From the IMG/VR virus record IMGVR_UViG_3300012956_000001, positions 25,730 to 89,729 of that record: a DNA stretch of 64,000 nt, one strand, 5' to 3'. Source of the DNA: a virus. Lineage: Duplodnaviria > Heunggongvirae > Uroviricota > Caudoviricetes. A program made the position numbers and the translations under genes. Position 1 is the stretch's first letter. Every line of letters starts with the position of its first letter. Below, piece after piece: positions 35,613 through 56,266 of the stretch. A model generated the notes under the pieces. The model was not told the DNA's origin and made no database searches. It saw only the letters and a program-made list of their open reading frames with translations.

Positions 35613-36422
35613 AGGGTTACTATGTCAACGATTAAGGAAGTAGTTACAGAGAAGTTGGGTGCTGTGGGACCGGCAGTTCGTGAACAGGTTATTGTTAACT
35701 TGGTAGCGTCTGAAACGGATCGTAGAACACAGGCATCACTCACGGTCGTTAAGAAGCTTGACGAGGCAAATGCTTCGTTGAAAAAGATCAACCGTGCTGA
35801 CAATGAAACCTTCAACGAGGATGGGTCCGTTGCAACCGCAACGTTTACCAAGTCACGACTTGAAGAAATCAAGAAGCTCAAGGAAACCATCCAGAAGCTT
35901 GAGACCGCGTTGGAGACTGCTTTTGAGAAGAGTGATTTCACCAAGCTCTTTGAATTAGCAAACAAGTAATGTCAATATACCAAGAACTACAAGATGAAGT
36001 TAACGCACGCGTTAACAATCAAGTAATTCTTGATAAGTTGGTCACAGAATTGATCTTTTCAGAGAAAAGAACAATCGATGTGGCAGTAGGTCGTGACCGA
36101 CCAATAAATTCTCCATACGAATATGCCAAAAAACTGAAACGTTATGTGGCAGAGAAAATTTCACTACATAGAAAGTTTCGTTATGAGTCACAATCGTATG
36201 TTGTGGAATGTGATTGGAAGTGGCACGATCTACAAAAACAACGACTTCGTGAAGTTCGCGCTGGTATAAAACAGGAATTAATGTCGTATTGATAACGCAA
36301 TATCGGGTAATTTGGAGGGGGTTGCCAAAAAACAACCCCTCTATTACCTTTAGGACATGATGAAATACGGCGGTTTTTGAACCGACCACACTATGTATTA
36401 GAAATCCCAACAGGAATTTATT

Positions 36423-36560
36423 ATGACTCATTCACAACGCTGGTTTAAGCAAGCCGATACGAAAGCCACAAAGCCTAGCTTTGTGTTGCATAATGATCGC
36501 TATGCGCTGAACGGCGTAACGATTACTGGTGATAGGGTCACGGATACAAATGGTTGGTAA
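36423..36560 (+). CDS. Putative 45-aa attenuator leader peptide
   Basis: Promoter TTGCCA 36322/TACCTT 36345, AGGA RBS; MTHSQRWFKQADTKATKPSFVLHNDRYALNGVTITGDRVTDTNGW*. Confidence 0.65.
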   Translation: MTHSQRWFKQADTKATKPSFVLHNDRYALNGVTITGDRVTDTNGW

Positions 36561-36585
36561 ATAAACCACTTTAGTATCACGATGT

Positions 36586-36625
36586 AGACCCCACCAGATG
36601 AAAAGTCGGTGGGGTTTTTGTTTTT
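36586..36625 (+). terminator. Intrinsic terminator with alternative antiterminator (36526-36597)
   Basis: agaccccacc...ggtggggttt + T tract directly before the first tRNA of the array. Confidence 0.8.
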
Positions 36626-36699
36626 GGGCTGTCGGATGCAAGGTGCGTCGCCTCCCTGTCACGGAGGACATCGGGCGGGTTCGATTCCCGTACGGCCCG
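36626..36699 (+). tRNA. tRNA-Asp(GTC), atypical D arm
   Basis: cctcc-ctgtcac-ggagg; C at position 8. Confidence 0.8.
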
Positions 36700-36702
36700 T
36701 AC

Positions 36703-36777
36703 GTCATAGTAGTGTTTAACGGTATAGCACATTACGTTGCCAACGTAAGAGTGTGGGTTCGACTCCCACTTATGGCT
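36703..36777 (+). tRNA. tRNA-Gly(GCC)
   Basis: ttacg-ttgccaa-cgtaa. Confidence 0.9.
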
Positions 36778-36799
36778 TGAAAATATATGTAGAGGCTAT

Positions 36800-37168
36800 A
36801 TGGCAAGTAAAGAATGGATTGCAAAAAACAAAGATAAGATGAAAGAATATCGTCGTATGTGGTATCACAAAAACAAACAAGAAGAACAGAAAAAGGCCAG
36901 ACATCGACAAAAATCTAGACGTTCAAATATAAAAGAATGGTTAGATAATTATAAAGCAACATTGAAATGTGAACGATGTGGATTCTCACATCCAGCAGCA
37001 TTAGATTTTCATCATAGAGATTCTAGCACAAAAGAATTTACAATAGGATCTCGTAGAACTTTACCATCTAATACTAAAACACTAAAAGAAATTGAAAAAT
37101 GTGAAGTGTTGTGTTCTAATTGCCACAGAATACATCACTATGAAGAACGAAGGGTAGGATCTGTGTGA
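36800..37168 (+). CDS. HNH endonuclease
   Basis: CERCG...LDFHH...EIEKCEVLCSNCHRIHH. Confidence 0.85.
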   Translation: MASKEWIAKNKDKMKEYRRMWYHKNKQEEQKKARHRQKSRRSNIKEWLDNYKATLKCERCGFSHPAALDFHHRDSSTKEFTIGSRRTLPSNTKTLKEIEKCEVLCSNCHRIHHYEERRVGSV

Positions 37169-37226: not shown

Positions 37227-37301
37227 GTCTCTCTGGTGTAGCGGGATTCGCACGACTGTCTGAAAAGCAGTAGGCTAACGGTTCGACTCCGTTGGGAGAC
37301 G
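37227..37301 (+). tRNA. tRNA-Phe(GAA)
   Basis: AC loop ctgaaaa. Confidence 0.9.
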
Positions 37302-37339
37302 CTTGACAAAATAGAAAATAGGGTATATATTGTAATCAT

Positions 37340-37411
37340 GCCTCCGTAGTGAAATGGATATAACTACGGTCTTCGGAACCGTCATTGGGGGTTCGAATCC
37401 CTCCGGGGGCA
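37340..37411 (+). tRNA. tRNA-Arg(TCG)
   Basis: AC loop cttcgga. Confidence 0.9.
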
Positions 37412-46944: not shown

Positions 46945-47803
46945 GGCTGTTTGGAGTCGTTAAGGATAGTATGTTGTAAAACATATAAAGCGGTGTACCC
47001 TTGTAATCCGCGTGAGTCGCAAGACTTGACCAACCAAACAAGTTCGGCCAACGCCAATCCAAAATTGGTGGCATCGAGGATAAGCTCTCGGTGATAGGTT
47101 CGAAGATTGTAAATGGGAAAAATCGTAGCCGTCTCGCCCGAAAGGGGAACGAGGGTTGCGGAAGTCTGACGGGTGGTGCCGGGCTCCATTTAAACCAACA
47201 GTCGAGAAAGTATTGGTAACGAATAGTTTGTTAGTCTGAGCTTTTGCAGGTTAAGGCTAATGAACAATGTGAGTGGTCTGGGCGATAACTTCGCTCGAGG
47301 TCGCAAAACATCGCAGAGTATCCCGCAAGGAGAATGCAGCCGCGGAGTGTAGCATTTACTATTCCAAAAGAATAGCGAACTACTGAGGAAGCACTTCGCT
47401 CGAGGTATAATATAGTTCAATGGTTGAACGAAAGCCTTTTAAGCTTTAGTTTTGGGTTCAATTCCCAATATTAATAAAATGGAAAGACTTCCTCGGTCTA
47501 AACGCGAAAAGAAGCGTAATGCCATACCAGTAATGGAATGTGGCTGGGTCAATGCTCCCAAGGCGGAGATCCATCAATGTAGACTCGCACGTAAAGGGTT
47601 AGCGCCTTTGAACGGCTCGCAAGGTCGGCGGTAGAAGAAGCGTTGAGTAGCGTTAGACGACAGGTGAAATGCCACACCTTAAAAAAGGTCGCTTTGGTTG
47701 TGGACTCTCTTGTGAGAGTGGATACGTTGGGAACGGCCCGTGGGGACATGGGTTGGAATAATCCGACAAACGCACAATCGTCACGGCTGTAGTCTCAGGC
47801 CGT
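46945..47803 (+). ncRNA. GOLLD-like large ornate RNA (~860 nt)
   Basis: Own promoter (46866/46889), no credible ORF, many GNRA hairpins, embedded tRNA, 3' hairpin acggc-tgtagtctcag-gccgt; family name from recollection, not a covariance-model search. Confidence 0.65.
47406..47476 (+). tRNA. tRNA-Lys(TTT)-like, embedded in the large RNA
   Basis: aaagc-cttttaa-gcttt; weak AT-rich acceptor. Confidence 0.7.
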
Positions 47804-48232
47804 ATTGCCCTCCCCTTGTTGAGAATGAATATGAGTGTTAAACTAGAAATCACAATGCCAGAAGGCGACAAGTATAAAGCAGTAATGAATCATTGGTTAC
47901 CACGATTGCTTGGAAGTGACGACACCGTATATGGCGAGACGGCGTATTTTCGTCTACGATTCTTTGATGACAACTCATTAGCAGGACCAAGTGCAGGACA
48001 TCTTGGACATGGGGGAGTTCACGTACGACAGTTCCGAGCATTGAAAAAGAAAGTCGGAATATTTGCATATATCGCATGGCCGTTTGTTTGGATTTGGAAT
48101 AGTTTGTTCGGTGGCGGTACAATGGAAGCTCAAGCAGACTTGTACGCCGAAATGAACAAGACACATCCAACATTGGTCAATCAGTACACGATGTTACGTA
48201 GTATGTTTCACAAGAGCAGTTATTAACATTAT

Positions 48233-48524: not shown

Positions 48525-48786
48525 ATTGGAGAGTGAAGTGGTCGCGGCAATGTAAAAGTTGTCGAGGAGAACTTCCGGTCACCACAGAACAGCCTAGGGT
48601 GGAAGCTGCCCACGCCGTAAGGCGCTACACGGCAACAGAGACGAGCCGATTAAGTTCGGATGAAACGGGCGACAGGTTAGGCGGTGCAACCTCAAACAGT
48701 TAGGGCTCTGTTCGGGCAATGCTAACGGGTAGAGGGCTTAGACAGATGACCACTCTTGACAGAAACCGGGGTATTATCTCTCCAAT
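48525..48786 (+). ncRNA. rnpB: RNase P RNA (compact)
   Basis: P1 attggagag/ctctccaat; GAGGAGAACTTCCGG and ACAGAAACCGGGGTA (P4); GCAACAGAGAC; TGAAACGG. Confidence 0.85.
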
Positions 48787-48795
48787 GTTGTATGC

Positions 48796-51453: not shown

Positions 51454-51863
51454 TTGGAGACGTACCATGTTGTATAAACTAGGCCTGTTAATTAGTTTGT
51501 TGTTGCCAGTCAGTGCAGTCGCACAAAAGCCTGTATCTGTTCGTATCACTACTACCGATATGGTAGACTCAGTTCGATTTACCGTGTCGTGGCCCAAGCT
51601 AGTTACTGTTACCACAACATATAACACGTATGATGTGTTGACCTTCAGCAATCCTCGACTGATTGAAACAGAACAACTAAGAGTGGTTACTGGAACAAGT
51701 TGGTCTCTAACCGTACCAAAGAATAAGTTATCTGCTGGACTAAAGTTCTATGCAAGTGTTCGTGTCTCGTCAACACCAACATATGGCGCGATCACGTATA
51801 CAACCCCCGCCGCAGAAGCAAGACCAGCATTGGTAGTAGAACGTAGACCATAATGTAGTAGTT

Positions 51864-51937
51864 GCTCGTGTGGCCGACCGGCACTAGGCAGAGATCTCTA
51901 AAATCTTACTAAGTGGGTTCGATTCCCACCACGAGCA
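51864..51937 (+). tRNA. Amber suppressor tRNA (anticodon CTA)
   Basis: gctcgtg/cacgagc; gagat-ctctaaa-atctt; canonical T arm. Confidence 0.85.
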
Positions 51938-52194
51938 TATCTTTTAACAAAATAGGTTATATGAACTACCCAAAAGTTATTGAAGAATGGTCTGTGCCCA
52001 CTCCACGACCTAATGATTGTTGGATGACAACGAGTGGCTTGTGGAGAGTATTTTACGATCCGTCAAGAAATTTTGTATGGGCACATTATGGACAACCAAT
52101 AAGTCCATTTGTTCCCGCCGGTGCAGTAAAACATTTAATGGAGTATATTATGAACAAGGATACGCTAATTTCAGGTTAGGATAGTACATTACGG

Positions 52195-55928: not shown

Positions 55929-56266
55929 GGGGCCGCTAGGCTTCGACGGAGGTTAGAACATTGAAAGAAGCGTGCCGAGACTGATTCGACTCGTTAAATG
56001 GAATCAAAATTCAAGTGCAGAATACGCACTCCCTCTAGCTGCCTAAGAGCGCTCGAGACTTTTATATTGAATCTGCGACAGTATAAAAGTTCGCTAGCAG
56101 ATAAATTCTCACCGACTCCGATACGATGAGATTTGACTTTCGGATAGACATAGTGTAGATTTGTTTATTGTGATACACTGTGTTAAAGTTTAGACAATAA
56201 ACTGCGCACGGAGAAGATTCAATAAGTACAATGCTTCGGACAGGGGTTCGAATCCCCTCGGCTCCA
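55929..56266 (+). ncRNA. ssrA: tmRNA; tag (A)AEYALPLAA*
   Basis: ggggccg/cggctcc-a with G3:U70, TTCGACGG, T arm; tag ORF 56017-56046. Confidence 0.95.

Follow-up and report, generated by a model that had tools for sequence, protein, structure and literature searches.

A putative leader-peptide attenuator at the head of a phage tRNA array and its counterpart in distant T4-like phages

The purpose and control of phage tRNA genes are debated, and proposals include compensation for codon usage and the replacement of tRNAs that are lost in host shut-off or cut by defence systems of the host. The locus described here raises the question of control directly. It lies in a stretch of 64,000 nucleotides (nt; the window) that corresponds to bases 25730-89729 of the complete 217.7-kb IMG/VR virus record IMGVR_UViG_3300012956_000001, a record with terminal repeats. 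Within the window a strong intrinsic terminator abuts the first tRNA gene of a dense array, leaving no space for a promoter in between, and a short open reading frame (ORF) of 45 codons lies just upstream. How, then, are these tRNAs transcribed? An earlier note, made from the letters of the sequence alone, had taken the arrangement for an attenuator of the trp/his type that might act as a general sensor of translation failure. The analysis reported here favours the first part of that proposal. We put at about 0.65 the probability that the element is a ribosome-mediated leader-peptide transcription attenuator which gates read-through into the phage tRNA genes.

The window contains 59 tRNA genes and a transfer-messenger RNA (tmRNA) gene according to ARAGORN. 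The dense array begins at 36625 with tRNA-Asp (36625-36700), the acceptor stem of which starts at 36626, directly after the U-tract of the terminator. Further tRNAs are found upstream at 3157-32769, and the element therefore stands at the head of the dense array but not before the first tRNA of the phage; the placing given in the earlier note holds in this narrower form. Other tRNA blocks are preceded by strong promoters at a distance of a few bases, as at 37303 (tRNA-Arg at 37340) and 40463 (tRNA-Ala at 40499), which implies almost leaderless tRNA transcripts. Set against these promoters the long leader ahead of tRNA-Asp is exceptional.

The leader can adopt two structures that share one strand. 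The terminator is formed from a GC-rich hairpin (36586-36617) that folds at -18.7 to -19.2 kcal/mol, followed by a U-tract. Its 5′ arm (region 3, GACCCCACCAG) is complementary, as GACCC-CACCAG, to a segment within codons 35-39 of the ORF (region 2, CTGGTG-ATA-GGGTC), and pairing of the two forms an antiterminator. Nested GATAC/GTATC and TGGTT/AACCA helices are enclosed by this pairing, with the stop codon in the apical loop. Up to this point the description in the earlier note was accurate: the positions and complementarity of the arms, the inner helices, the terminator directly before a tRNA at 36626, and a 45-codon ORF that uses 18 of the 20 amino acids (no Cys, no Glu) and 29 distinct codons were all recovered by folding, ARAGORN and a recount. 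Constrained and unconstrained folding also bears out the antiterminator and terminator as mutually exclusive and nearly isoenergetic, the forced antiterminator state having -31.9 kcal/mol and the terminator state -34.2 kcal/mol (36520-36625). Prior to transcription of the 3′ arm, the minimum-free-energy fold of 36500-36600 is the antiterminator, and its pair probability in the nascent transcript 36357-36603 is 0.99. In the full leader at equilibrium the terminator has a pair probability of 0.96. The antiterminator rod (36526-36597) comprises about 27 bp at -26.5 kcal/mol. It was also considered as a degenerate tRNA, and this was rejected as it folds into one long hairpin and not a cloverleaf.

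Translation of the ORF was assessed by comparison with a close relative, the 197-kb JGI contig L092, which was found via the sole homologue (91% identical) of a neighbouring 107-residue protein. L092 is about 91% identical to the window across the region, and a 6.3-kb contig of the lake-water run X3 is the same variant. Over codons 1-34 the ratio of non-synonymous to synonymous divergence (pN/pS) is 0.11 in frame, as opposed to 1.75 and 1.57 in the other two frames, and five of the seven changed codons are synonymous. The flanking genes give similar in-frame values (0.02 and 0.17). This low ratio in a single frame indicates that the leader ORF is very probably translated and its peptide constrained, on what is a small sample. 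The Shine-Dalgarno sequence of the ORF is conserved in L092 and stands at the spacing, 7 nt, that is commonest in this phage, where such motifs precede 81 of 184 long ORFs (44%, with a background of 7%). Searches of 5.8 billion proteins and of 1.84 billion representatives returned no homologue of the peptide except itself and the ORF of L092, and a profile search of the same representatives returned only the window's own leader peptide.

The complementarity between ORF and terminator exceeds that expected by chance. Pairing of the terminator 5′ arm with the upstream 100 nt gives a gain of -11.0 kcal/mol, compared with -3.5 ± 2.5 in dinucleotide shuffles, of which 3 of 500 were as good. A scan of the + strand across the genome gave 18 terminator-like hairpins that fold at -12 kcal/mol or lower, and for this gain the one at 36586 ranks first (z = -3.4). 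A second terminator with upstream complementarity (13571-13590, z = -2.4) was discarded: it closes an ordinary gene, a promoter comes next and there is no small ORF. The p-value from the window alone, about 0.006, becomes roughly 0.05-0.1 once the choice among terminators is allowed for. A plainer explanation draws on that correction, namely that the ORF is no more than a small early gene equipped with a promoter and a terminator, that the tRNAs are reached by leaky read-through and that the complementarity is incidental. The peptide is indeed an ORFan under purifying selection, hairpin terminators end many phage genes, and the further pairing expected of an attenuator, between regions 1 and 2, is not significant in the window. 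However, four conserved tRNA genes would be almost shut down by a strong terminator if no promoter followed it. In L092 the pairing has survived three substitutions, and related phages carry, at the corresponding genomic position, a family without sequence relationship to the window leader that repeats the three-part design and shows covariation (see below). We consider the small-gene explanation unlikely.

The leader ORF of L092 has 42 codons, the stop codon being reached three codons (9 nt) earlier, and from codon 35 onward the two leaders differ by four non-synonymous and no synonymous changes. Three substitutions fall in the anti-arm: a G-U pair remains after C36526T, one pair is lost through G36528T, and the inner helix is lengthened by A36534G. 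The alternative pairing nevertheless retains a gain of -9.3 kcal/mol, as against -3.0 ± 2.5 in shuffles (10 of 500 as good). In the nested hairpin four pairs are kept by two-sided changes while the apex sequence is entirely replaced, and on this comparison no other single structure of the window lineage is as well supported. Terminator, tRNA-Asp and tRNA-Gly are invariant save for one base in the terminator loop.

The design was also followed into more distant relatives. Among long contigs in which the major capsid protein is about 57% identical to that of the window phage, tRNA arrays were located, and two of these contigs have an intrinsic terminator immediately before the tRNA that opens their dense array, with an ORF of 47-52 codons just upstream. 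These ORFs start with MKTL[TN]LHT (the MKTL family) and fall into 71 clusters at 90% identity in public metagenomes. The 28 loci that were fetched represent 20 distinct variants. Every one of the 20 consists of an ORF of 38-53 codons, a TAA stop, 61-101 nt and then a tRNA, which is tRNA-Asn in all but two, with a terminator and U-tract at or nearly at the tRNA. Each ORF also carries an anti-arm, located relative to the stop at -22 to -15 in the main type, -37 to -30 in the type of L108 and -19 to -12 in L104. The gains from the alternative pairing range from -6.4 to -15.4 kcal/mol, compared with -2.6 to -5.0 kcal/mol in shuffles, and in 18 of the 20 variants at most 6 of 200 shuffles match them.

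The arms of the MKTL leaders change together. Sets of anti-arm, terminator 5′ arm and terminator 3′ arm include GTTAGAGG / CCTCTAAC / GTTAGGGG, GTTAAGGG / CCCTTAAC / GTTAAGGG and GTCAGGGT / ACCCTGAC / GTCGGGGT. Further pairs of anti-arm and terminator 5′ arm are GTTAGGG / CCCTAAC, GTTAGGGG / CCCCT[GA]AC and AGTTGGGG / CCCTAACT. The residue encoded at the anti-arm varies between Glu, Arg and Gly, and the pairing is kept. In an alignment of 14 variants the antiterminator helix (2:3) is paired in 95.2% of cells with four double-change pairs, and its covariation score is 0.214 against 0.120 in shuffles (0 of 500 as high); sliding the partner lowers pairing to 24-58%. The terminator helix (3:4) in the same alignment is 97.1% paired with three double-change pairs and scores 0.252 against 0.142 (0 of 500). 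Judged by these alignments, the alternative pairing is as well supported in the MKTL family as the terminator helix itself. The earlier note had suggested looking in related phages for short ORFs and terminators ahead of tRNA arrays, and would have counted a lack of the alternative pairing in homologues against its reading; the MKTL modules show both the arrangement and the pairing, and in L092 the pairing is likewise kept.

Two further features of the MKTL leaders bear on the part that a ribosome may play. Region 2 pairs with nucleotides 8-16 of the ORF beyond shuffles in 13 of 16 variants, which is where one would look for an anti-antiterminator that is covered by a ribosome during initiation. 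In most main-type variants the distance from arm to stop is a constant 14 nt despite differing tails (DTDVG, EASGW, DINKG), which fits a terminating ribosome masking the arm. The frame is kept through indels in multiples of three (50, 52 and 53 codons), the pN/pS of the family is 0.53 with 1.1 and 4.5 in the other frames, and residues M1, K2, T3, L4, H7, T8, W19 and G21 are invariant. Such evidence also bears on the possibility that no ribosome is needed, the hairpin at 36526-36597 being an RNase III-type processing site or a switch that responds to a factor, a tRNA or temperature. The length and stability of the rod, its near-certain formation in naked nascent RNA and the four compensatory pairs of its inner hairpin would all suit such an RNA element. 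Against it, the anti-arm lies inside a conserved frame near the stop in every lineage, the 14-nt spacing is held while the tails differ, the frame survives the indels, and the leader matches neither the T-box nor any other known leader family (no Rfam match at the gathering score in 30000-58000, and none at E ≤ 1 in 36280-36800). An RNA element acting without ribosomes is thus very improbable, and the attenuator reading is held with more confidence for the MKTL family than for the window.

The relation of the window leader to this family is one of design. Homology of the 45-codon ORF to the MKTL peptides was considered and rejected (hhalign probability about 1%, with an unconvincing MAFFT alignment), and the window module would be either an independent invention or a very diverged MKTL relative. 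That related genomes repeat the design at the corresponding place does raise the prior that the complementarity in the window is functional. GOLLD RNA is found upstream of the ORF in all 15 MKTL loci tested, ending 55 to about 600 nt before it. In the window GOLLD RNA lies at 47342-47801 (187.5 bits; gathering score 150), mid-array and 11 kb downstream of the leader; no leader-like module follows it there, the next ORF (about 47826-48225) being an ordinary one. The window's GOLLD RNA is a full-length match with tRNA-Lys (47406-47476) nested inside. It was also observed that the tails of the MKTL peptides occur in three interchangeable forms of equal length (…LEDTDVG, …LEEASGW and …LRDINKG), always followed by TAA, and that the window leader ends in …TDTNGW; the recurring tails may mean that the residues adjoining the stop codon are constrained.

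From these structures we infer the following course of events. Transcripts would begin at a weak early promoter at 36322, or arrive from upstream, and would carry the translated 45-codon ORF. A fast ribosome would melt region 2 and then sit between regions 2 and 3, allowing the 3:4 terminator to form and transcription to stop. Were the ribosome to lag or stall earlier in the ORF, the 2:3 helix would form first, as the favoured fold of the nascent RNA, and RNA polymerase would read into tRNA-Asp, tRNA-Gly, tRNA-Trp (in L092), tRNA-Phe and beyond. A mechanism of the pyrBI type was ruled out, as the ORF ends before the terminator.

Several observations weigh against this reading. The stop codon in the window lies 18 nt past the arm, the footprint of a terminating ribosome (about 36540-36572) misses region 2, and the thermodynamic model still permits the 2:3 helix with a ribosome at the stop. 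With the arm left uncovered in this way, blocking would have to be steric; in L092 the stop, 9 nt earlier, would put the arm under the footprint. The gain from pairing regions 1 and 2 in the window (-6.7 kcal/mol, against -5.8 ± 2.6 in shuffles) is no better than chance, and untranslated RNA would therefore read through by default. The changes to the 2:3 helix in L092, a wobble, a break and a shift of register, fall short of clean covariation. The in-frame pN/pS of 0.11, drawn from only seven changed codons, would equally fit a functional small protein, and L092 provides the sole sequence homologue of the leader. The MKTL family lends its support by analogy only, there being no detectable relation in sequence, and the shuffle tests on that family ignore shared ancestry. 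Codons for Asp, Gly, Trp and Phe make up 11 of 44 in the leader, with 18% expected (p = 0.17), and the 18 amino acids of the window peptide are unremarkable (31% of random 45-mers), as are the 19 of L092 (no Glu). Nor is the leader enriched for the ten amino acids of the next tRNAs (p = 0.16), and it contains no run or cluster of cognate codons. A leader matched to the codons of its own tRNAs was rejected for the window on these two tests of enrichment.

What an attenuator of this kind would sense is better approached through the MKTL peptides. Of 74 unique peptides of at least 45 residues, 70 contain all 20 amino acids and the other four contain 19; the probability that a random 52-mer of this phage's proteome contains all 20 is 3.4%. 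All 20 together with an internal Met are present in 69 of 73 peptides of 45-56 residues, whereas column-shuffled peptides are complete in 44.7 ± 3.0 cases with a maximum of 55 (2000 trials, none of which reached 69). Where the usual Cys at position 10 is missing, a Cys is found at one of at least three other positions, and Tyr, Phe and the internal Met behave likewise. These counts, from tests that ignore shared ancestry, are strongly suggestive of a retained all-20 composition in the MKTL leaders. Behind these leaders stand arrays with tRNAs for almost every amino acid, with 24 tRNAs in L093.

The same data bear on the possibility of a more specific attenuator, in which the leader is an arrest or sensor peptide (similar to TnaC, SecM or ErmCL) for a ligand, a host factor or a phage protein, or a functional small protein whose synthesis is coupled to tRNA transcription. 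The constraint on the window peptide, the invariant residues of the MKTL family and the recurrence of C-termini such as ...DTDVG, ...EASGW or ...TNGW before TAA are what a specific peptide would be expected to show. The pN/pS of the MKTL family is only 0.53, though, and the retention of all 20 amino acids while Cys, Tyr, Phe and the internal Met move points to composition and not to a fixed motif. No known arrest motif was recognized in the leaders. A specific peptide is in our view rather improbable. For the attenuator that responds to translation in general, the signal is probably the overall speed of decoding, that is the supply of tRNA or aminoacyl-tRNA, with feedback on tRNA production; this is suggested by a leader that has no codon run and yet samples most amino acids. 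The general sensor of translation failure put forward in the earlier note finds indirect support in the 69 of 73 leader peptides of relatives that have all 20 amino acids and an internal Met; the 18 of the window peptide are unremarkable. A link between the leader and anticodon nucleases, also raised there, is speculation.

Leader-peptide transcription attenuators are well known from amino-acid operons, where trpL, hisL, leuL, pheL, thrL and the multivalent leader of ilvGMEDA are examples. Like the trp/his attenuators, the window element combines a short, apparently translated leader ORF with an intrinsic terminator whose 5′ arm can be taken up by an antiterminator, and the MKTL relatives have in addition an anti-antiterminator at the start of the ORF. 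The order of stability (3:4 > 2:3 > 1:2) is likewise that of the trp attenuator. The window element differs in having tRNAs as its targets, in being phage-encoded and in the make-up of the leader, which draws on 18 amino acids (all 20 in the relatives) and has no run of cognate codons; moreover, the window ORF stops only after region 2 has been passed, ahead of region 3. The trp/his geometry claimed for the locus can be retained as to the translated-looking ORF, the terminator and the conserved, exclusive antiterminator, while the lack of the defining codon run makes the element a variant of the class in this respect.

Other attenuators sense the inhibition of translation ahead of resistance genes, among them leaders of the ermC/ermK type and those of the ABC-F genes vmlR and lmo0919. 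In these systems stalling on a small upstream ORF with no codon run flips a terminator/antiterminator pair, as proposed for the window, and general difficulties of translation are sensed in this way. They answer to drug-bound ribosomes at peptide motifs and control proteins, whereas the window element would have tRNA as its output and, presumably, decoding speed at any codon as its input. The T-box recognizes uncharged tRNA itself, with no need of translation, and its targets are synthetase or amino-acid genes; it resembles the window element in tying a terminator/antiterminator decision to tRNA status and differs from it in that the window arm lies within an ORF. In the pyrBI operon of E. coli the terminator lies within the ORF, and its hairpin is kept from forming when a ribosome follows closely. 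As in pyrBI, there is no regulatory codon run in the window and the coupling of transcription to translation would decide termination; unlike pyrBI, the window ORF ends 26 nt before the terminator arm, which gives the opposite logic. The nearest likeness is to the MKTL leaders, in the position at the head of a dense array, the length of the ORF, the three-region switch and the terminator abutting the first tRNA; the window leader differs from these in its lack of detectable sequence homology, in the position of GOLLD RNA relative to it and in having 18 rather than all 20 amino acids. Full-text literature searches found no published account of attenuators on phage tRNA arrays or of pan-amino-acid leaders, and a cryo-EM paper on GOLLD mentions only its proximity to tRNA islands (10.1101/2024.12.08.627333).

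The coordinates of the leader and of the genes that follow it are collected in Table 1.

Table 1. Features of the leader region and the first tRNA block, numbered as in the window
Feature	Position	Strand	Basis
Hairpin following the preceding gene, GAGGGGGTTG / CAACCCCTC; its loop contains the -35 hexamer	36315-36341	+	Read from sequence
Predicted early promoter of sigma-70 type, TTGCCA-17-TACCTT; predicted start near 36357	36322-36350	+	Motif; conservation in L092
Small hairpin of the 5′ untranslated region, GGCGG / CCG-CC, variable loop	36369-36387	+	RNAalifold consensus of window and L092
Shine-Dalgarno sequence AGGA, 7 nt before ATG	36412-36415	+	Sequence; conserved in L092
Leader ORF, 45 codons	36423-36560	+	Coding signature against L092
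Region 1 candidate (anti-antiterminator), pairs with region 2	36425-36435	+	Fold without region 3
Region 2, antiterminator 5′ arm CTGGTG-ATA-GGGTC, within codons 35-39	36526-36539	+	Folding, shuffles
Nested hairpin with stop codon, GATAC / GTATC and TGGTT / AACCA	36543-36578	+	Folding, compensatory pairs
Intrinsic terminator: GC-rich hairpin of 10+3 bp (36586-36617) and U-tract TTTTTGTTTTT to 36625	36586-36625	+	Folding
Region 3, terminator 5′ arm GACCCCACCAG, common to antiterminator and terminator	36587-36597	+	Folding; invariant in L092
tRNA-Asp(GTC) and tRNA-Gly(GCC), putative first regulated genes	36626-36777	+	ARAGORN; 100% identical in L092
HNH-type endonuclease ORF at the site of the relative's tRNA-Trp	36800-37168	+	Comparison with L092 and X3
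tRNA-Phe(GAA), last gene before the next strong promoter	37227-37302	+	ARAGORN
Next promoter TTGACA-17-TATATT, predicted end of the block dependent on the leader only	37303-37331	+	Promoter scan, motif

The promoter assigned to the leader rests on a motif that is frequent in this genome. TTG[AC]CA-N17-TAnnnT occurs 40 times on the + strand and not once on the - strand of the 217.7 kb; most copies have TATATT and precede genes or tRNAs, mostly at genome positions 7.7-86 kb. The strand bias of the motif, together with a match on the + strand in an intergenic gap, makes the promoter at 36322 probably real. The positions of TTGCCA (36322-36327) and TACCTT (36345-36350) were confirmed, and L092 keeps both hexamers, an insertion and a deletion of one base each in the spacer cancelling out to leave the spacing at 17. 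On the other side the -10 hexamer is weak, TACCTT sharing only three positions with TATAAT, the -35 hexamer lies in the loop of a hairpin, and a generic promoter scan did not list the site; the promoter of the earlier note thus stands as to coordinates, genome motif and conservation while its strength is in doubt. The hairpin in question, at 36315-36341, takes a different form in L092 (GGTTGCC / GGCAACC, with one base inserted and one deleted) and is possibly a weak end signal of the upstream operon. In type, promoter and Shine-Dalgarno sequence alike are proteobacterial. The stem of the hairpin at 36369-36387 is invariant between window and L092, the loop having changed. The consensus fold also contains an AU-rich helix of 9 bp, CAUGAUGAA / UUUAUUAUG (36356-36364 with 36417-36425), which would sequester the start codon of the leader; it is invariant in L092 and hence shows no covariation.

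The extent of the block under control is set by the promoter at 37303. This follows the first block, Asp-Gly-(Trp/HNH)-Phe, as the caveat on internal promoters in the earlier note had indicated, and limits a strict need for the leader to that block. The tRNA-Asp(GTC) is atypical, with C for U at position 8, and falls below the Rfam cut-off for tRNA, its best match in the clan being tRNA-Sec at 22 bits. The gene is nevertheless 100% conserved in L092, and its 3′ half is 88-90% identical to the tRNA-Asp of Streptomyces phages. L092 (10815-10887) and the X3 contig carry a 73-nt tRNA-Trp(CCA) where the window has a stretch of 434 nt; the HNH insertion thus puts 434 nt in place of 68-73 nt, and ARAGORN finds no tRNA-Trp in the window.

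The phage encodes T4-type portal and major head proteins, and its + strand holds nearly all long ORFs. The major capsid protein is about 54% identical to those of its closest cultured relatives, a Microcystis phage and Flavobacterium phages, and identical or near-identical DNA is present in runs from activated sludge, wastewater and lake water; no RNA run was listed as containing it. Close homologues were sought by blastn and tblastn among 50,697 phage records, with tRNA-level matches or nothing returned; a scan of viral contigs with the neighbouring 107-residue protein gave no match, and neither did the exact pattern of the tRNA-Asp 5′ end among viral or metagenome contigs. Elsewhere in the window the tmRNA (55929-56269) encodes the tag peptide AEYALPLAA, and L093 and L094 also have a tmRNA near GOLLD. 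Between tRNA-Pro and tRNA-Gln, a match to bacterial RNase P RNA class A at threshold (48526-48789; 100.1 against 100 bits) covers the whole model in only 264 nt and could represent a shortened RNase P RNA encoded by the phage. At 51863-51938 lies a possible amber suppressor tRNA, which has the anticodon CTA and is labelled tRNA-Pyl by ARAGORN. Within the tRNA array of L092 there are genes for a protein with PCRF and RF-1 release-factor domains (15402-16074) and for an RNA ligase (16899-17918).

Taken at its widest, the design suggests, tentatively and at somewhat less than even odds, that phages with large arrays gauge the overall decoding capacity of the cell by means of a test peptide containing nearly all amino acids, and adjust transcription of their whole tRNA complement to it. 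Any shortage of charged tRNA, be it through mismatched codon usage, host shut-off, starvation or host anticodon nucleases, would then activate the array, and the window element would be a member, independently evolved or very diverged, by which at least the Asp-Gly-(Trp)-Phe block is controlled. The MKTL module stands directly behind GOLLD in every variant tested, which would offer a new handle on the function of GOLLD RNA. If the attenuator reading is correct, no circuit dedicated to the regulation of phage tRNA genes would have been described before this one, and leader-peptide attenuation would reach beyond amino-acid operons to the tRNA genes themselves. It would also represent a new sensor design, in which the leader samples all amino acids rather than repeating one. 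The idea that phage tRNAs are supplied on demand would become directly testable, as omitting any one amino acid should raise read-through.

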